Shown piece after piece: positions 31,669 to 51,117 of a stretch of DNA of 64,000 nt. Made by a program: the position numbers and the translations under genes. The stretch spans positions 214 through 64,213 of the forward strand of contig CAYZCL010000108.1 of assembly GCA_964476595.1 (NCBI GenBank). Reading direction: 5' to 3'. This DNA comes from an uncultured Desulfobacteraceae bacterium (GTDB lineage Bacteria; Desulfobacterota; Desulfobacteria; Desulfobacterales; JALSRD01). Each line of letters begins with the position of its first letter. The stretch's first letter is position 1. The notes under the pieces were generated by a model. That model was given only the letters and a program-made list of their open reading frames with translations. It made no database searches and was not told where the DNA came from.

Positions 31669-31700
31669 GCTGACACTCCTCGCATGTAAAAAAACCGGCC

Positions 31701-32073
31701 GAAGCGGTCCGTAAGCCGAATTCTGTGCCCGCGGCGGGTTGCCCCGGCCGCGGGTGACGATCATTCATCTGCGGCCACCGGTTGCCCGGCGGCTCTTGCG
31801 ACCTACCCGGGAGCTCGGACGGGCCGCCCTCCAACGCTCCCCTATTTGGTCTTGCACCGGGTGGGGTTTACCGAGCTTCCCCGGTCACCCGGGGAACTGG
31901 TGCGCTCTTACCGCACCTTTTCACCCTTACCGCGCCGGAAACCCGGCACGGCGGTATCTTTTCTGTGGCACTTTCCTTCGCGTCACCGCGACTCCACGTT
32001 ATGGAGCACCCTGCCCTGTGGTGTTCGGACTTTCCTCCGGGGACACGCCCCCAGCGATCGCCTGAACCGCTTC
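31701..32073 (-). ncRNA. rnpB: RNase P RNA (type A)
   Basis: Minus strand GAGGAAAGTCC, AGTGCCACAGAAA, GGTGAAAAGGTGCGGTAAGAGC, ACAGAATTCGGCTTAC; P1 GAAGCGGTTC / GGACCGCTTC. Confidence 0.97.
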
Positions 32074-32091
32074 GGCCGGCAAAACCGGCCC

Positions 32092-37946: not shown

Positions 37947-38678
37947 TCAGGTGCCGCCGGCCGCCAGCGCGATGGCCGCGGCCAGGTCGAGGGTGCCGCT
38001 GTAGATGGCGCGGCCCGTGATGACGCCGGTCACCCCCAAGGGCTCCAGGGGCAGCAGGTTGCGGATGTCCTCCAGCGTGGACACCCCGCCCGAGGCCACG
38101 ATAGGAATCGACAGCGCCTCGGCCATGCGGCGCGTGGCCGCGATGTTGGGGCCGGTCTGCATGCCGTCGCGCGAAATGTCGGTGAAGTTGATGGCGGCCA
38201 CGCCGCAGTCTTCGAAGCGTTTTCCCAGTTCCACGGCCGTGACCCGCGTGGTGCGCGTCCAGCCCTCCACGGCCACCAGGCCGTCGCGGGCGTCGATGCC
38301 CACCACGATGCGGCCCGGGAAGCGTACGCAGGCCCGCTCCACCATCTGCGGGTTGCCGATGGCTTCGGTGCCGATGATCACGCGTGCAACCCCCATGTCG
38401 AGGTACATCTCGATGGTCTCTACGGTGCGGATGCCGCCGCCCACCTGGATGTCGGCCCCGACGCCGGCCAGGATCCCGCGGATGGCGTCCACGTTGCGCG
38501 GCGCTTTGTCGAAGGCGCCGTCCAGGTCGATGACATGGATCAGGCGCGCCCCGGCCGCCTCCCAGCGGGCGGCCATGGCGGTCGGATCGTCGGAAAACAC
38601 CGTCTCGGCGTCCTTGCGCCCCTGCAGCAGGCGCACGCACCTGCCGCCCCTGATGTCCACTGCCGGGATGACGATCAT
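37947..38678 (-). CDS. hisA: ProFAR isomerase HisA
   Basis: MIVIPAVDIRGGRCVRLLQG, IHVIDLDGA, QVGGGIR, TDISRDGMQTGPN. Confidence 0.96.
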   Translation of the reverse strand: MIVIPAVDIRGGRCVRLLQGRKDAETVFSDDPTAMAARWEAAGARLIHVIDLDGAFDKAPRNVDAIRGILAGVGADIQVGGGIRTVETIEMYLDMGVARVIIGTEAIGNPQMVERACVRFPGRIVVGIDARDGLVAVEGWTRTTRVTAVELGKRFEDCGVAAINFTDISRDGMQTGPNIAATRRMAEALSIPIVASGGVSTLEDIRNLLPLEPLGVTGVITGRAIYSGTLDLAAAIALAAGGT

Positions 38679-39367
38679 GATCCGGGAAGCTCGTCCACGA
38701 TTTCCTGCAGTCCATAGAGGGCCAACTGCTCGGCCGTCAGCCACTTGCCGCCCCGCTTGAAAAAAGTGCCGATGTTGAACAGGTTTTCCATGAGCGAGTG
38801 CTGGGTCTCGTCGAACACCGTGCTCCAGATGACGCTGCTGTCTTCCACGCGCACCATGGCCAGCGTGAAGGCCACCGACGCCGGCCGCTCGGCCCCGTAA
38901 TCGGAACCCACACGCTCGCGGAAGCGGTAGATGTTGCCCACCACGACCGCATCGGCGCCCAGACGGCGGCCGGTCTTGGCCACCACCCCCACCTCGGGAA
39001 ACAGCAGGCCCTCCTCGTTGAGCAGCGTGGTGTAAACCCCCTTGGCCCGCTCGGGTGGGATCACGTCGCTTTTCATCTTCCGGCGCACCAGCTGGCTGAG
39101 CTGTTCTGTCATGTAGCGATCGGCCCCCTCCGCGACCGGCCCGGTGACCATCATGGTACCGCACAGCGGGCAGCGCACGCTCTGCCCCTCTCCGTAGAGC
39201 GCACTCATGTTGGTGAACGGCAGCACGGCGATGCGGGTGGGCTTGAAGTTTTCGGCGGCCGGACCGGCCACCGGCACGGGGCGGGGCTGGCAGGCACCGG
39301 CCAGGAGCAGCACGACCGCCAGCAGCACGGCCGGGAAACGTCGGACACAGGGTTTCGGGGTGATCAT
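38675..39367 (-). CDS. Lipoprotein, CsgG/LpoB-like alpha/beta fold (inferred)
   Basis: Lipobox AGAC; RIAVLPF, LGADAVVVG, SVIWS..DETQ; internal CPLC. Confidence 0.6.
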   Translation of the reverse strand: MITPKPCVRRFPAVLLAVVLLLAGACQPRPVPVAGPAAENFKPTRIAVLPFTNMSALYGEGQSVRCPLCGTMMVTGPVAEGADRYMTEQLSQLVRRKMKSDVIPPERAKGVYTTLLNEEGLLFPEVGVVAKTGRRLGADAVVVGNIYRFRERVGSDYGAERPASVAFTLAMVRVEDSSVIWSTVFDETQHSLMENLFNIGTFFKRGGKWLTAEQLALYGLQEIVDELPGS

Positions 39368-39401
39368 GGGTAAGACTTCCTCCCTTTGGGTGCTTTGGGA
39401 A

Positions 39402-39989
39402 TCAGAGGGTTCCCTTGCTGGAACGAACGCCCCCGAAACGCGCGTCGGCGGCCGCCGCCTGGGCCAGGGAGCGGCCCGTCGACTTGAAGACCGCTTCGAT
39501 GACATGGTGCTCGTTTTCCCCGCAGGCGACGTGGATGTGCAGGTTCATTCCCCCACGGGTGGCGAAGGCGCGAAAAAACTCCTTGGCCAGGCTGCCGTCG
39601 AAGCGTGCGCCGCCGCCCAGCGGGATCGGCAGTTGAAAGACCAGGAAGGGACGCTTGGAGAGGTCCACGGTCACGGCCGCCAGGGCCTCGTCCATGGGGG
39701 TCACGGCGTGTCCATAGCGCCGGATGCCCTCGCGGGTGCCCAGCGCCTCGTCGAGGATGTCGCCCAGCACCAGTCCCACGTCCTCGACGGTGTGGTGCAG
39801 GTCTACGTGCAGGTCTCCGCGCGCCTGAACCCGGAGATCGAACCCGCCGTGGACGGCGAGCAGCGTCAGCATATGGTCGAAAAAGCCAATGCCGGTCTCG
39901 ATGTCCGCCTGTCCCGTCCCGTCGAGCACCAGCTCGGCCTGGATGTCCGTTTCCCGGGTCCTGCGACAGGCTTTGGCCGTTCGCTGCAT
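39402..39989 (-). CDS. hisB: Imidazoleglycerol-phosphate dehydratase
   Basis: RRTRETDI, TGIGFFDHML, HHTVEDVG, PMDEAL, NEHHVIEAVFK. Confidence 0.97.
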   Translation of the reverse strand: MQRTAKACRRTRETDIQAELVLDGTGQADIETGIGFFDHMLTLLAVHGGFDLRVQARGDLHVDLHHTVEDVGLVLGDILDEALGTREGIRRYGHAVTPMDEALAAVTVDLSKRPFLVFQLPIPLGGGARFDGSLAKEFFRAFATRGGMNLHIHVACGENEHHVIEAVFKSTGRSLAQAAAADARFGGVRSSKGTL

Positions 39990-40190: not shown

Positions 40191-40301
40191 GGAGAACCTC
40201 CGGGGAAACTTCACCCCGGCCGGGAAACGACGGCGGCGCCCCGGTCGCGGGGCGGTGCCGTCGAAGGCAGCCCGGCGCCATCCACGCCGGGCTTCAGCGC
40301 T

Positions 40302-40487
40302 TCAGGCCGCTCTTTTCAGTACGGACCGGCGCTCCCCCTTTCGGGGAGTCATCGGTTTTTTTCGGCGGTCCTCTCCGCTGCGGCGGTCACGTCCCGACCG
40401 GCGCTCCGGTAGATGATTGGCATAGCTGAATTCACGCCGATCGATCCCCGAACGCCGACCGCCGTTATCAAAATAGGCGGTGTCCAC
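40302..40487 (-). CDS. 61-aa Arg-rich microprotein with RRSGxDRR repeats
   Basis: GTG start with strong SD GGAGGAGGGG; GGRRSGIDRR..ERRSGRDRRSGEDRR..GERRS. Confidence 0.75.
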   Translation of the reverse strand: MDTAYFDNGGRRSGIDRREFSYANHLPERRSGRDRRSGEDRRKKPMTPRKGERRSVLKRAA

Positions 40488-40653
40488 AGGTACTTCCCCT
40501 CCTCCCGCATCCTCCGGCGGTATCGGCCAAAATGAAACACATCCGGTCGGTATCACAGCGTCATGGGCATCGGCTGTTCCTGTTTCGATTCTGAAAGGTG
40601 TTCGTCAGATTCCGCCCGGCATAAAAACAAACCTTCTAATGAATTTTCTTTCA

Positions 40654-40670
40654 AGCAACAATGATGCCAA
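40654..40670 (-). promoter_or_regulatory. sigma-54 promoter with IHF-like site and palindromic enhancer
   Basis: TTGGCATCATTGTTGCT (GG-N10-GC); TAACAA-N4-TTG at 40698-40710; perfect 11-bp IR at 40760-40770 / 40784-40794. Confidence 0.75.
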
Positions 40671-40984
40671 TCCCCTTATGTGTTTTTTAACTATTAATAA
40701 CAACAGTTTGAAAACAAGGACCCAGGGGCCGTGTCGAAAAACGGGCCGCAACTGTTACGTTTATTACCGATCTTTATTACATTTCGGTAATAAATTGGGT
40801 GAATTAGGTTATAGACCCGGGCGCCCCGGCCGGACGCGGCGGGCAATCGCACCCCCGCCTGTCCCGGCGGAAAAAGCGCGACCGCGGCCGGAAGCGGATT
40901 AGGAATTGATTTACGGTGCGGGAAATGGCATATCACCGAGAGGCCCCGTGCCCCGGCCGGACGCGGGCCGCCTGAGACCGGACG

Positions 40985-41222: not shown

Positions 41223-42956
41223 ATGCCGTATCCCATCGTACTCAAAGACGCCTTCAAGCGCTTCACGCTGGACCAGGACAAGATCCTGCCGCCCGGGGAG
41301 ACCGTGCGGCGTTTCCGGCGCAAGCTCGAAAAACTGGACCTGGACATTCTCCGCGAGACCCGGCGCATCGACAACGGGCGGCTGGGCATTCCGGTTTACT
41401 TCAGCATCTGCGGCCGGGACGCCGCCGCCCTGACCGGCACCCGTAAGCAGATGGGCAAGGGCGCCACGCCCGAGCAGGCCGAGGCCAGCGCCGTCATGGA
41501 GCTGGCCGAGCGTTTCTCCTTCTTCAGCTTCCGCAGCAACCCGGCCAACTTCCGGCGGGCCACCTACGCGCAGGTGCGCGACCGGGCCATGCCCTTCGAG
41601 CTGATCGCGGCCTCGGTGCACGACACCTCCGAGGACCTCGAGGCGGCCCGCGGCATCTTCGAGCAGCTGCCGCTGCAGTGGACCGCGGGCTACAGCCTGA
41701 CGCAGCAGCGAGAAGTGCTGATCCCCTTTTCGTGGTTCTTCGCCATCAACGAGTTCAACGGCCCCTCGGCCGGCAACTGCGTGGAGGAGGCCCTTTCCCA
41801 GGGCATCTGCGAGATCGTCGAGCGCCACGTGTCGGCCCTGGTCAGCCGCGGGCGCATACCGGTGCCGCTCATCGATCCCGATTCGGCCACGGACCCCATG
41901 GTGCGCGACATGATCGCCAAGTACCGCCGCGCCGGCATCGTGCTCTACCTCTCGGACTTCTCGCTGGACACGGGCATCCCCACCGTGGGGGCCGTGGCCT
42001 ACGACCCGGCCACCTTCCCGCGCCACAGTGAGATCGTGTGGACCGCCGGCACCACCCCCGACCCCGAAAAAGCCCTCAGCCGCACCCTGACCGAGGTCGC
42101 CCAGCTGGCCGGCGACTTCAACACCGGCTCCAACTACGTGGCCAGCGGGCTGCCCAAACCCGCGAGCATCGCCGAGCTGGATTTCATCACGCGGGCCTCC
42201 TCCCGGGTGCCCATCGGCAGCCTGCCCGACCTTTCCAGCAACAACATCCGCCTGGAAGTCGAGGCCCTGGTGCAGGCCCTCGCCCGCAAGGGTATGGAGG
42301 TCTTTGTGATCGATACCACCCACCCGGCGCTGGGCGTACCGGCCTTCTACACCATCGTGCCGGGAGCGCACTTCCGCGAACGGGCCGTGGGAACCGGGGT
42401 GGGCATGTTCGCCGCCAGGCTGATCGCCGAAAACACCGCGCCCCGCCGGGCCATCGCCCGGCTGGAAGAAATCGACCGACTCCTGCCGGGCAAGTATTAC
42501 GTCAGCTTCTACCTGGGCCGCTGCCGCCTGGAGCTGGGCGAGCCGGAAGAGGCCCGCCGCCACCTGGAACGGGCACTGGAACTGGACCCCGGCGACGAGG
42601 ACCGGGCCAGCATCTACTCCTACCTGGGCATCTGCCACAAAGAGCGCGGCCGCTACCGGGAAGCGCTGGCCGTGCTGGCGCAGGGCGAGCGCTGCGACCC
42701 GCAGCGCACCGACATCCTCAACCTGATGGGCTTCTGCCACTTCAAGCTCGGGGAACACGAAAAGGCCATCGCCTGTTTCCGGCGGGTCATCGAGCTGGAT
42801 CCCGGCTCGGCCATCGACTACGCCAACATCGCCTCCAACTACCGCGACATGGGCCGGCGCAAGGAGGCCGTGCGCTACTACCGCATGGCGCTGGAACTGG
42901 ACCCGGGCATCGACTTCGCACGCGAAAACCTGGAAAAGCTGACTTCCGGGGAGTGA
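41223..42956 (+). CDS. YcaO-family ATP-dependent backbone-activating enzyme fused to C-terminal TPRs
   Basis: MGKGATPEQAEASAVMELAERF, FNGPSAGNCVEEALSQGICEIVERH, RTLTEVAQ; about 5 TPRs at C-terminus. Confidence 0.88.
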   Translation: MPYPIVLKDAFKRFTLDQDKILPPGETVRRFRRKLEKLDLDILRETRRIDNGRLGIPVYFSICGRDAAALTGTRKQMGKGATPEQAEASAVMELAERFSFFSFRSNPANFRRATYAQVRDRAMPFELIAASVHDTSEDLEAARGIFEQLPLQWTAGYSLTQQREVLIPFSWFFAINEFNGPSAGNCVEEALSQGICEIVERHVSALVSRGRIPVPLIDPDSATDPMVRDMIAKYRRAGIVLYLSDFSLDTGIPTVGAVAYDPATFPRHSEIVWTAGTTPDPEKALSRTLTEVAQLAGDFNTGSNYVASGLPKPASIAELDFITRASSRVPIGSLPDLSSNNIRLEVEALVQALARKGMEVFVIDTTHPALGVPAFYTIVPGAHFRERAVGTGVGMFAARLIAENTAPRRAIARLEEIDRLLPGKYYVSFYLGRCRLELGEPEEARRHLERALELDPGDEDRASIYSYLGICHKERGRYREALAVLAQGERCDPQRTDILNLMGFCHFKLGEHEKAIACFRRVIELDPGSAIDYANIASNYRDMGRRKEAVRYYRMALELDPGIDFARENLEKLTSGE

Positions 42957-43037: not shown

Positions 43038-45284
43038 CTATCGCGAAGCGCTCTTCGACACGCGGCCCCTGAGCGCCGCGATGCGGGCCTCCACCGCATC
43101 GCAACCGGCCGCCATGCCGACCAGCGCCTCGGCAGCGCGGCGCCGGCTTTCGTGCGTGCCGGCGGCCAGGTCGGAAAGACGCGCCAGGTCCGCGTCGTAG
43201 GACTGGAAACGCCCGGCCAGCTCCTGGCGGATGCTCCCGGCGAAAGCGTCCAGCAGTTTGAGCAGGTACTGGAACTTGATGTTCTCGCGGTAGTCCAGGA
43301 ACGAGGCGCGCATGCTCTTCTCCATCTCGCGCTTGATGCGCCGCACGCTGTGTTCGAGGGCCCGCACCACCTCGCGGTTCCCGTCGGCGTCCCTGGAGCG
43401 CAGCAACCGGCGGGCCAGGCGCAGCAGCGAAAACACTCCGTAGTGGGCCACCACCTCGGCCCGGATGCGCGCCGAGTAGCGCATGGTCATGCGCGCGGCC
43501 GGCAGCCGGATGCCGGCCCGGCGGCGCACGATTTCCAGCTCGGGCAGCCGGAAGGGCTGCACGGCGGGCCGTTCGTCCGCCGGATCCGCGCCCCCCAGGT
43601 CGCGCTCGTAGGCCTGCAGGCTGTCACGCCCCATCTCGTCGAAGGGCGCCACCACCGCTTCCAGTTCATGCCGGATACGCTCCTCGCAGCGGCGGACGAA
43701 TTTCACCACCCGCGGGTGGATGGTTTCGGTGAGGTAGACATCCAGCGCCTGCCGGAAATCCTGGTAGACCAGGTAAAGGGTCTGGTTGAAGCCGGCCGAC
43801 GCGATCTGCTCCCGGTAGGCCCCGTAGGAGACCTCGTAGCCGCGGATGAAATCCAGCACGTCCCCCAGCAGTCCCCCGGCGCGGTCGTCGAAGAAGCGGT
43901 CGGTCTCGGTTTTCAGTTCCCGGCGCACCGGCTGCAGGGCGCCGTCCAGGGTGGTCTTCACCATGACGTGCAGATGGGTGATCTTCTTCTGGTGGCGGGC
44001 GATGCCGGAGACCAGTTCACGCACGCCGTCGGCGTCGCGCGTCAGCATCTGCCGGTGGATGTCCACCCACCGGCGCAGCGCGGCGGCCACCACGGCGATG
44101 CGCTCCAGGTGGTTGCCCAGCAGCAGGCGGCTGCGCTGGTGGGCCAGGTGGTGGCCGAAGACCGCCTCGAAACGCTCCCGCTGAGCGTCGCAGAAGGCCA
44201 CCAGTTCGGCGTCCGCCTCCCACTGGGCCAGGCGCAGGCGGTCTCTTTCGCCGAGTTGCGCGTCCGGGCGGCGCAACAGGTTGTAGAGCGCCGAGAAGGC
44301 GTACACCTCCGGCTCGGGCTTGATCACCGCCAGGTCCCGCCGGGTGCGCTCGACCAGCGCCTCCAGTTCGCGACGCGACTCGTGCTCGCCGAAATCGGTG
44401 TTGACCACGAAGATCATGTTGCCGATGATGCCCATCTCGCGGATCATCGACAGGAATCGGATGTCCGCCTGGCGCAAACCGGTGCGGCTGCTGATGAGGT
44501 AGACGATGAAGTGCGTCAGCAGCAGGTAGTCCTGGATCATGGACAGGTGCAGGGGATTGGGGGAATCGCTGCCCTGGCAGTCGGCCAGCTCCAAGTCGTC
44601 TTCCAGCAGCGGTGCCGGGATCTCCAGCAGGGCGTCCTGCAGGTAGACGGCCAGGGCGTCGGCGCTGACGAACTCCTGGTGCTGTGCGAAAACCTCCGCC
44701 TCCAGCACCCTGACGCCGGTCTCGGCGCCGAACAGCTCCGATACCCGCTCGTAGCCCTCCAGGTAGGCCGCCAGCAGGATGGCGTTCTCGTTTCTCCGCC
44801 CGTCGCGGATGAGCAGTTCCGGTCCCGCCTCCGCCAGTGCCCGTGCGAGGGCCTTGCGGTCCGCGGCGCGCCGGATGTCGAAAGATTCCCGCTCGCGGTC
44901 CCACAACGGGGCCGGGAACAGCACCAGGGCCTGTTCGATGTCGGCGTTGATCTCGTCCCAGGGCTTGAACGTCAGCGTGGCCCGGGGGCCGCGGCCGCCG
45001 CGGATACGCGTGACGATGGAGGTCATCACGCCCGCACCGCGGCGCAGGTGGTCGGCGCCCAGCAGCGCGTTGATGAAGGTGCTCTTGCCGGACTTGATGG
45101 CGCCCACCACGGCCACGCGCACCACGTCCTCGGACATCTGCTCCTCGACGGCGTCGCAGCTTCGGCGCCAGCGGGCAAAGACCGCCTCGGCCAGGTCGGG
45201 GACCGCGGCGGCGGTGTCGAACAGGCGGTCCAGTTCCCCTTTGACCTGCAGTATCTCGGCTTTGATGCTTTTGTATGCGTCCAT
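43038..45284 (-). CDS. Bacterial dynamin-like GTPase
   Basis: G1 VGAIKSGKSTFINALLG, G2 GVMTSIVT, G3 LADCQG, G4 region VVNTD; long helical stalk. Confidence 0.8.
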   Translation of the reverse strand: MDAYKSIKAEILQVKGELDRLFDTAAAVPDLAEAVFARWRRSCDAVEEQMSEDVVRVAVVGAIKSGKSTFINALLGADHLRRGAGVMTSIVTRIRGGRGPRATLTFKPWDEINADIEQALVLFPAPLWDRERESFDIRRAADRKALARALAEAGPELLIRDGRRNENAILLAAYLEGYERVSELFGAETGVRVLEAEVFAQHQEFVSADALAVYLQDALLEIPAPLLEDDLELADCQGSDSPNPLHLSMIQDYLLLTHFIVYLISSRTGLRQADIRFLSMIREMGIIGNMIFVVNTDFGEHESRRELEALVERTRRDLAVIKPEPEVYAFSALYNLLRRPDAQLGERDRLRLAQWEADAELVAFCDAQRERFEAVFGHHLAHQRSRLLLGNHLERIAVVAAALRRWVDIHRQMLTRDADGVRELVSGIARHQKKITHLHVMVKTTLDGALQPVRRELKTETDRFFDDRAGGLLGDVLDFIRGYEVSYGAYREQIASAGFNQTLYLVYQDFRQALDVYLTETIHPRVVKFVRRCEERIRHELEAVVAPFDEMGRDSLQAYERDLGGADPADERPAVQPFRLPELEIVRRRAGIRLPAARMTMRYSARIRAEVVAHYGVFSLLRLARRLLRSRDADGNREVVRALEHSVRRIKREMEKSMRASFLDYRENIKFQYLLKLLDAFAGSIRQELAGRFQSYDADLARLSDLAAGTHESRRRAAEALVGMAAGCDAVEARIAALRGRVSKSASR

Positions 45285-50020: not shown

Positions 50021-50106
50021 GGAACGGCGGTGGCTCAAGAAAAACCCGGAAAGTGCGGAAAAAAGCCAGGGGGCCAATGCGTGACCGCACGGAAGGATCG
50101 AGAATA

Positions 50107-51117
50107 ATGCTGCACGAGCGCCGACACCACATCCTGGTGGTCGATGACGAGGACCTGATACGCGACATCCTGCGCGAGGGCCTGGAGCAGGCCGGGTACG
50201 AATGCCGCACGGCCGCCGACGGCCTCGAGGCCCTGGAGATTCTCGAACACGAACCCGTCGACGTGGTCATCACCGACATTTCCATGCCGCGTCTGGACGG
50301 CATCCAACTGGCCGACCGCATCCACCGCAGCCACAGCGCCGACGTCATCGTGATGACCGGCTTCGCCGAAAACCTGAGCTACGAGGACATCATCGCGCGC
50401 GGCGCCAGCGACTTCATCCAGAAACCGGTGGGGGTGCGCGAAATCATCCTGCGCCTGGAACGGGTCATCCGCGAACGCACCATCTCTTCCGAGCAGCGGC
50501 GCACCGAGGAGGAACTGCGCAGCAGCCTGCAGAAACTGCGGCGGGTGCTCAGCCAGACGGTCAACGCGCTGGCCTCGTCGCTGGAAAAACGCGACCCCTA
50601 CACCGCCGGCCACCAGCAGCGCGTGGCGCGCCTGGCCCACGCCGTGGCGCTGGAGATGGGACTGCCCGAAGAACAGGCCGAGGGTATCCGCATCGCCGGC
50701 ATCCTGCACGACATCGGCAAGATCTCGGTGCCCACCGGCATCCTCACCAAGCCGGGGAGGTTGAGCGTCAACGAGTTCAACCTCATCAAGGAACACCCCC
50801 AGGTGGGTTACGACATCCTCAAGGACATCGAGTTCGACCCGCCCGTGGCCACCAGCATCATCCAGCACCACGAGCGCCTCGACGGCAGCGGCTATCCATC
50901 GGGGATGGCGGCCGGGGACATCATCATGGAGGCCCGCATCCTGGCCGTCACCGACGTGGTGGAGGCCATGGCCTCCCACCGCCCCTACCGCCCCAGCCTG
51001 GGCGTGGACCGCGCGCTGGCCGAAATCGCCGCCCACAGCGGCACCCTCTACGACCCGGATGTCGTAAAGGCCTGTCTCACGTTATTCGAGCAACACCGCG
51101 ATTTTTTTGATAAATAA
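50107..51117 (+). CDS. Response regulator with HD-GYP (c-di-GMP phosphodiesterase) domain
   Basis: LVVDDE, TDISMP, KP; TAGHQQRV, LHDIGK, HHERLDGSGYP, HRPYR. Confidence 0.93.
   Translation: MLHERRHHILVVDDEDLIRDILREGLEQAGYECRTAADGLEALEILEHEPVDVVITDISMPRLDGIQLADRIHRSHSADVIVMTGFAENLSYEDIIARGASDFIQKPVGVREIILRLERVIRERTISSEQRRTEEELRSSLQKLRRVLSQTVNALASSLEKRDPYTAGHQQRVARLAHAVALEMGLPEEQAEGIRIAGILHDIGKISVPTGILTKPGRLSVNEFNLIKEHPQVGYDILKDIEFDPPVATSIIQHHERLDGSGYPSGMAAGDIIMEARILAVTDVVEAMASHRPYRPSLGVDRALAEIAAHSGTLYDPDVVKACLTLFEQHRDFFDK

Follow-up and report, generated by a model that had tools for sequence, protein, structure and literature searches.

A Small Arginine-Rich Protein Family of Sulfate-Reducing Desulfobacterota with Probable Sigma-54 Control and a Candidate Role in Cyclic di-GMP Binding

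Organization of the Locus

We analyzed a stretch of 64,000 nucleotides (hereafter the window) from an uncultured Desulfobacteraceae bacterium (assembly GCA_964476595.1, contig CAYZCL010000108.1, positions 214 to 64,213), which carries on its minus strand a gene for a 61-residue arginine-rich protein preceded by a long regulatory region. Reading along that strand, the order is a tRNA-Ala gene (41103-41028), the terminator of this tRNA (41018-40993), a GC-rich spacer, and an AT-rich island. The initial annotation of this DNA had described an enhancer, a site for integration host factor (IHF), and a sigma-54 promoter, together devoted to a microprotein that it took for a candidate sponge of the second messenger cyclic di-GMP (c-di-GMP). 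All elements of this cassette are present where it had placed them, with the promoter letters at 40669-40654. The features of the locus are as follows.

40550-40850, no strand: AT-rich regulatory island, GC content 35-49% against 60-78% on both flanks (genome about 65-70% GC)
40760-40794, no strand: candidate upstream activator sequence, a perfect 11-bp inverted repeat TTTATTACCGA-N13-TCGGTAATAAA
40698-40710, no strand: IHF-like site TAACAACAGTTTG, one mismatch to the IHF consensus WATCAANNNNTTR, between the repeat and the promoter
40654-40669, minus strand: predicted sigma-54 (-24/-12) promoter TGGCATCATTGTTGCT, GG at 40668-40667 and GC at 40656-40655, canonical GG-N10-GC spacing
40488-40643, minus strand: predicted 5' untranslated leader of about 156 nt, its start near 40643 inferred from the -12 element
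40506-40496, minus strand: strong Shine-Dalgarno sequence GGGAGGAGGGG, 8 nt ahead of the GTG start
40302-40487, minus strand: gene for the 61-residue arginine-rich protein, GTG at 40487, stop codon at 40304-40302, family signature at residues 7-36
40269-40293, minus strand: GC-rich hairpin AGCCCGGCG-N7-CGCCGGGCT, 9 nt past the stop codon, without a U-tract

The Small Gene and Its Product

The 61-codon open reading frame (ORF) is almost certainly a real gene. Substitutions fall mostly at synonymous sites, with a ratio of non-synonymous to synonymous change (pN/pS) of 0.10-0.12; the orthologue in locus L006 differs by 21 synonymous and 7 non-synonymous changes (pN/pS = 0.12). This pattern, thousands of relatives, and a conserved signature (see below) bear out the initial view of the ORF as coding. 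Alternatively, the locus might be untranslated, producing a non-coding RNA under sigma-54 control or holding an ORF that arose by chance in GC-rich DNA; spurious ORFs are frequent in high-GC genomes, and the leader is long and conserved. However, besides the low pN/pS, such a proposal has to contend with thousands of protein-level homologues encoded by very different DNA, with the strong Shine-Dalgarno sequence, and with a locus that offers neither an Rfam match nor an excess of RNA structure. The substitution pattern and the family size effectively refute it, and we attach almost no probability to it.

The predicted product contains 15 arginines, 4 lysines, 5 aspartates, and 4 glutamates (net charge about +10; 25% arginine). 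Residues 7-36 read DNGGRRSGIDRREFSYANHLPERRSGRDRR, the C-terminus is ERRSVLKRAA, and the product carries neither a signal peptide nor a PEP-CTERM signal. Searches with the protein found no match in Pfam (E <= 10), NCBIfam, PHROGs, or PADLOC, and none in the PDB by profile search. An AlphaFold2 model has no secondary structure (predicted template modeling score 0.16). The protein is thus predicted to be disordered, as would be expected of a peptide that folds upon binding, and equally of any disordered protein.

Predicted Sigma-54 Promoter and Upstream DNA

The putative promoter scores 10 of the 11 consensus positions and is the sole match to TGGCAY-N5-TTGCW in the window (0.07 expected; one match in 7 of 100 shuffles). 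The -24/-12 element is intact in the orthologous loci L006 (TGGCACCGTTGTTGCT) and L007 (TGGCACCATTGTTGCT) and is also kept in L042, while in a distant relative (L003/L010) the sequence TGGCACAGTAAATGCA lies about 110 nt ahead of the start codon. We scanned the 400 nt upstream of 73 family genes, taking at least 9 of 11 consensus positions as a good match. Such matches stand on the sense strand upstream of 28 of the 73 loci. The two controls, the antisense strand and a downstream window, yielded 3 of 73 and 6 of 70. These counts represent non-independent events because the loci are phylogenetically related. The "SGGDRR" subfamily has the promoter almost without exception. Retention in orthologues, enrichment in the family, and the prominence of sigma-54 activators among the neighbours (see below) all favour the sigma-54 reading of the initial annotation. 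The regulatory half of the cassette appears well supported by sequence comparison, and the window gene very probably depends on sigma-54.

Upstream of the promoter, the half-sites of the inverted repeat occupy 40760-40770 and 40784-40794, with a third copy, TTTATTAC, at 40773 inside the spacer. The repeat can thus be described as three GTAATAAA-type sites, with a centre that lies some 133 bp ahead of the point where transcription is predicted to begin. Its 11-mer occurs twice in the 64 kb, both times here (0.06 expected; two or more copies in 0 of 100 shuffles), and the repeat is nearly identical in L007. Both orthologous loci, L006 and L007, retain the IHF-like pattern TWACAA-N4-TTR with a variable N4, and the DNA farther upstream cannot be aligned between these two loci and the window. 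Far upstream of the paralogues that adjoin an activator gene, the enriched hexamers are TTCACA, TGGGTA/TACCCA, and GGTATT. These constitute a different site from the GTAATAAA repeats of the window, and because the common part is only a loose GTAAT core, we do not claim a common activator for the window gene and these paralogues.

A perfect 17-nt direct repeat, GCCCCGGCCGGACGCGG, at 40823-40839 and 40950-40966, flanks a GC-rich stretch that separates the AT-rich island from the terminator of tRNA-Ala. Since the stretch between the two copies is mostly absent from L006 and L007, a small insertion or duplication is suggested.

Leader and Transcript End

Three orthologues agree without a difference over long blocks of the leader, such as GAACAGCCGA...CGCTGTGATACC...TTTTGG.CGATACCGC. 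In L006 an indel just upstream of the GTG breaks the frame, so that a longer, 84-residue reading of the ORF is not conserved and the leader is non-coding. We found no Rfam match in the leader, its predicted fold is no better than that of shuffled sequences (z = +2.0), and the alignment of three sequences contains essentially no covariation. The possibility of a riboswitch or another structured leader was dropped on these three grounds.

At the other end, the GC-rich hairpin at 40269-40293 may mark the end of the transcript; it was not called by the terminator scan. As to the available sequencing runs, those that contain window DNA are metagenome contigs, the window's own DNA being present in hydrothermal-vent metagenomes. 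Coverage in the runs for Desulfosarcina alkanivorans is flat, low, and fragmentary. None of the runs that we inspected yielded a usable transcript signal or readable transcript ends for the locus.

A Widespread Family with a Fixed Core

A single-sequence search with the window protein returned 35 small relatives. With a profile the number rose to 2,710 clusters at 90% identity (E <= 1e-3), and an exhaustive HMMER search at 50% identity gave 1,759 clusters with E <= 1e-3, 706 of them reaching E <= 1e-10. All relatives are unnamed or labelled "hypothetical protein" and lack Pfam domains. The initial annotation had expected standard pipelines to miss the gene, a claim that does not hold, given that homologues are annotated as "hypothetical protein" by both NCBI and JGI. 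We recovered 76 loci, one genome per species, nearly all of them from metagenome-assembled genomes of Desulfobacterales or Desulfatiglandales, with several genomes carrying two copies; one locus comes from the cultured Desulfosarcina alkanivorans PL12. Full-text literature searches found no publication describing the family. The family is new, and it is very widespread in sulfate-reducing Desulfobacterota.

The proteins are small (about 50-130 residues, median 76; mean cysteine content 0.8%) and share a core of 30 residues, DNGGRRSG[IV][DE]RRx[FY]SYxx[HY][IL]PERRSGx[DE]RR. Over 241 members in register, the arginine, proline, and glutamate positions of this signature are 98-100% conserved and the tyrosine 97%, and glycine is also near-invariant. 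The spacing from DRR to PERR is exactly eight residues in 251 of 254 members. Downstream of the core follow one to eight extra [DE]RR units of the SGx[DE]RR type, an acidic residue being conserved ahead of each RR pair. About one-third of the members end in a [DE]RR-x-x-hydrophobic tail (e.g., DRRDFTIY, ERRAAF), which may be a docking or degradation signal. By this sequence evidence the family is a fixed module and not just a case of low complexity rich in arginine.

These features bear on whether the protein might be a general nucleic-acid binder, such as an RNA chaperone, a ribosome- or nucleoid-associated protein, or a mixed-charge protein that forms condensates, with expression induced by a stress or nutrient condition under sigma-54 control. 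RNA binding is common among arginine-rich motifs, and the strongly basic composition, the predicted disorder, and the varied genomic contexts of the family would all fit. Nevertheless, the fixed spacing and the invariant proline, glutamate, tyrosine, and glycine are unusual for non-specific polyelectrolyte binding, an acidic residue is conserved ahead of every RR pair, and fusions to PilZ domains and linkage to pilus, exopolysaccharide, and activator genes (see below) suggest signalling and not housekeeping. We consider a general nucleic-acid binder rather unlikely.

Resemblance to the CleD Arginine-Rich Region

The closest known module is the arginine-rich region (ARR) of the CheY-like Cle proteins of Caulobacter, together with the c-di-GMP-sequestering peptides CSP1-CSP4 derived from it (PMC5677366, PMC7382256). 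The minimal CleD peptide, DRRRFNSADYKGPRRRKAD, has 19 residues, is unfolded when free, and binds an intercalated c-di-GMP dimer; D154, R155, R156, Y163, G165, R168, R169, and D172 are critical for binding, G165 is required for a turn, and deletion of single loop residues lowers the affinity 2- to 11-fold (PMC7382256). The consensus of natural ARRs is a tandem [Y/F]xGP[D/E][R/K]R flanked by arginine and aspartate; with few exceptions, it was seen on CheY-like proteins of alphaproteobacteria (PMC5677366).

Written in the layout of CleD, the core of our family reads xGx[DE]RR-x-F-x-Y-xx-[HY]-x-PERR-xxx-[DE], with the features in the same order. Both are short, linear, arginine-rich modules, the CleD peptide being unfolded when free and our family predicted to be disordered. 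Both consist of tandem small-G-x-[DE]-R-R and aromatic-x-P-[DE]-R-R units, with a phenylalanine after the first DRR, an aromatic residue two to three positions ahead of the proline, and an acidic residue after the second RR. The family units SG[IV][DE]RR and [HY][IL]PERR each agree with the ARR unit at 4-5 of 7 positions, the second lacking the glycine. In a profile comparison, hhalign pairs SGIDRREFSYANHL with VGPDRRRFNSADYK at a probability of 3.9% (pairwise E 0.011). Scored with the hidden Markov model of the family, the CleD peptide ranks above 98.9% of 20,000 composition-matched shuffles, and its higher-affinity variant K168R above 99.7%. The statistical resemblance of the family core to the CleD peptide is modest.

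Besides the Cle proteins, the initial annotation had invoked the RxxxR motif of PilZ domains. A likeness to the latter was not borne out: the 61 residues contain no RxxxR...[DN]xSxxG signature, no PilZ fold, and no match to PF07238, and it is the CleD ARR that the core resembles. What the family shares with PilZ receptors is the use of arginine-based candidates for guanine recognition and, in two cases, a true PilZ domain. P0038 (477 residues) and P0049 (472 residues) combine pentapeptide repeats and a PilZ domain above the Pfam threshold with two tandem copies of the module at the C-terminus. Both are diverged relatives, and these rare fusions go to PilZ and not to a receiver domain; the module is in this respect a C-terminal appendage on a signalling domain, as the ARR is on the receiver of Cle proteins. 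A further protein, P0129 (186 residues), has an unassigned, PilZ-like N-terminal domain followed by one copy of the module.

Two other observations point toward c-di-GMP. A c-di-GMP-I riboswitch precedes a PEP-CTERM protein gene at L009:4218-4314 (57 bits) and L017:4160-4242 (40 bits), with the small gene about 120 nt after this PEP-CTERM gene; these are the sole riboswitch matches in some 637 kb of related loci. Additionally, family genes recur at pilus and exopolysaccharide loci (see below), and pili and exopolysaccharide are classic outputs of c-di-GMP. The PilZ fusions, the riboswitch lineage, and the pilus and exopolysaccharide loci are three independent hints that agree on c-di-GMP. Taken with the layout of the core, they make c-di-GMP binding a serious possibility, which we would still place somewhat below an even chance.

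Genomic Context and Sigma-54 Activators

ORFs near the family genes were clustered and then scanned against Pfam. The commonest neighbour family is Sigma54_activat, which accounts for 11 of 148 and 19 of 127 of the ORFs lying no more than 3 kb away. When sigma-54 activators were recognized by their signature motifs, they stood within this distance in at least 29 of the 76 loci, a figure that is too low given the many truncated contigs. Of these activators, 23 measure 300-360 residues and 24 are immediate same-strand neighbours of the small gene. In the activators of 345-346 residues the AAA+ sigma-54 interaction domain starts at residue 5-19 and HTH_8 closes the protein, from which we conclude that they are without a sensory domain. 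Examples of such proteins (about 345 residues, AAA+ and HTH_8 only) are encoded at L063:3643-4683 and L035:5412-6449 (within L056-L081).

Two arrangements can be recognized. In the first, a short activator gene, a sigma-54 promoter, and the small gene are followed by pilM/N-pilO-pilP-secretin genes or by a gene for a PAS hybrid histidine kinase. In the second, a PEP-CTERM protein gene is followed by the small gene, the short activator gene, and Poly_export/Wzz exopolysaccharide genes. Elsewhere (L003/L010) the small gene and that of a GAF-domain sigma-54 activator converge. No activator lies near the window copy, an "orphan" whose neighbours (tRNA-Ala, hisB, and a YcaO-TPR gene) are common only to its closest relatives.

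The YcaO-TPR gene (41223-42956) raises the question of whether the small protein could be a precursor of a ribosomally synthesized and post-translationally modified peptide. The gene is divergent and about 740 bp upstream, a layout kept in L001/L006 and L007. The tRNA-Ala gene with its own terminator nevertheless separates the two genes, other loci do not have YcaO as a recurrent neighbour, the protein is poor in Cys/Ser/Thr core residues, and what is conserved is the whole 30-residue core and not a leader. A precursor role, rejected on synteny with the co-location limited to the closest relatives, has in our judgement a negligible probability.

The pairing of a short activator with the small gene recalls PspF-PspA and HrpS-HrpV, in which a sensor-less sigma-54 activator is controlled in trans by the protein whose gene it activates. 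In our family, likewise, an activator of about 345 residues with only AAA+ and helix-turn-helix domains adjoins a putatively sigma-54-dependent small-protein gene. The small protein might accordingly be an anti- or co-activator of such activators, modulating their ATPase in a feedback loop without a nucleotide ligand. The unit of sensor-less activator, promoter, and small gene is found again in many species with changing outer neighbours, in PEP-CTERM loci the short activator gene lies directly downstream of the small gene, and the hydrophobic tail found in about one-third of the members could be a docking motif. On the other hand, the family resembles none of PspA, HrpV, FliX, and NifL in sequence; many of its members, the window's included, are without a nearby activator; and the strict triads of one acidic residue and two arginines, with the aromatics, would seem to resemble a ligand site more than a protein interface. 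We judge this ligand-free role rather unlikely, and control in trans as such is compatible with c-di-GMP binding.

The combination of both functions leads to a bolder proposal, namely that this family supplies the sensory subunit that the sensor-less activators are missing: a stand-alone c-di-GMP receptor of 50-100 residues that would fold upon binding and, once loaded with c-di-GMP dimers, would dock on, or release, the 345-residue AAA+ activator. We regard it as improbable, more so than the ligand-free role. Were it true, transcription of pilus and PEP-CTERM/exopolysaccharide genes in Desulfobacterota would be under second-messenger control, and the receptor's own sigma-54 promoter would close a feedback loop.

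A third known system for comparison is the PEP-CTERM cis-regulatory module of Proteobacteria (PrsR/PrsK), in which an upstream motif and a sigma-54 promoter precede single-gene operons with long upstream regions (Haft et al. 2006, PMC1569441). The window locus is similar in its single small gene and its long AT-rich upstream region with an upstream site and a -24/-12 element, and the genes of family members are often found immediately behind PEP-CTERM genes, beside exopolysaccharide export genes. In contrast, the GTAATAAA-type repeat differs from the described TTTACA motif, the activators adjacent to family genes lack the receiver domain of PrsR, and the product itself has no PEP-CTERM signal.

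Proposed Mechanism

In this context, the explanation that we tentatively prefer, with somewhat less than even confidence, is that the locus is a single-gene, enhancer-dependent unit and that the core of its protein is a linear c-di-GMP receptor. A bacterial enhancer-binding protein encoded outside the 64 kb would bind the GTAATAAA-type repeats at about -133, and DNA bending at the IHF-like site would bring it to sigma-54 RNA polymerase at 40669-40654. The resulting monocistronic transcript, with its leader of about 156 nt and its strong ribosome-binding site, would yield a disordered, strongly basic protein of 61 residues. In this protein the DRR/PERR core, perhaps with the two extra SGxDRR units, would clamp c-di-GMP, acting as a linear receptor that folds upon binding, analogous to the ARR of Caulobacter CleD, in which D-R-R and R-R-x-x-D triads together with aromatic residues hold the intercalated dimer. 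Across the family, such a receptor would tie c-di-GMP to sigma-54 circuits for type IV pili and for PEP-CTERM/exopolysaccharide genes. The sponge or buffer of the initial annotation is one of several possible roles for it. A PspA-like or adaptor role, in which the protein would signal to a partner, is at least as attractive because elsewhere in the family the small gene is tightly paired with sensor-less activators.

Several findings weigh against the preferred explanation. On the regulatory side, the inverted repeat is kept only in part in L006 (central and right sites), no ORF of the activator type (GAFTGA) was found in the window, and many family loci, mostly of the SGIDRR type, have no recognizable -24/-12 element in the 400 nt scanned, so that sigma-54 control is common but not universal in the family. 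On the side of the ligand, GGDEF, EAL, HD-GYP, and PilZ are not among the 25 commonest neighbour families of the related loci, and the two loci with riboswitches represent one lineage, with a terminator-like hairpin between the PEP-CTERM gene and the small gene. Furthermore, homology to CleD is not established (hhalign 3.9%; shuffle p about 0.01). The gap from DRR to RR is 10 residues, against 11 in CleD, the repeat period is 12 instead of 13, the following acidic residue stands at RR+4 (RRxxxD) where CleD has it at RR+3 (RRxxD), and the family core lacks the glycine essential in CleD (G165), with no glycine ahead of the proline. Because the spacing that defines the Cle ARR family differs in this way, we do not claim membership of it.

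Other differences from the Cle ARR set the family apart: it is stand-alone and not on a CheY-like receiver, it belongs to Desulfobacterota and not to alphaproteobacteria, and it has an extra invariant DNGGRR head, besides the 1-8 further SGx[DE]RR units. We thus put forward the family as a candidate stand-alone second-messenger receptor and, judging from the sequences, a plausible variant of the linear c-di-GMP-binding module. If its core binds c-di-GMP, it would be the first natural stand-alone example of a linear arginine-rich binding module, so far known only as an alphaproteobacterial CheY-like tail and as engineered sequestering peptides. Thousands of receptors would then be added in sulfate-reducing and hydrocarbon-degrading sediment bacteria, whose effectors are poorly known. 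Whatever the ligand, the pairing of sensor-less activator, sigma-54 promoter, and microprotein at pilus and exopolysaccharide loci is conserved and undescribed, and it provides a direct way into the control of sensor-less activators. With its 30 residues, the core is within easy reach of peptide synthesis.

Other Features of the Window

The initial annotation had also pointed to an HD-GYP phosphodiesterase about 10 kb from the small gene. The gene is real: at 50053-51117 on the plus strand, a receiver domain is fused to HD-GYP (HDIGK ... GSGYP), and the product is likely a c-di-GMP phosphodiesterase. Its proximity, however, carries no evidential weight for the function of the small protein, HD-GYP not being one of the common neighbours of the family.

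On the far side of the tRNA-Ala gene, the YcaO-TPR gene (41223-42956, plus strand) adjoins a gene for a 748-residue dynamin-like GTPase (43038-45284, minus strand), a pair kept in L001. Between hisB and hisA lies an ORF without a Pfam family (38675-39505, minus strand), whose product has an N-terminus resembling a lipoprotein signal. Its homologue in L001 (7123-7815) encodes 230 residues, and the his genes are interrupted in both genomes. Farther away, the minus strand carries a class A RNase P RNA gene at 31696-32074 (302 bits).

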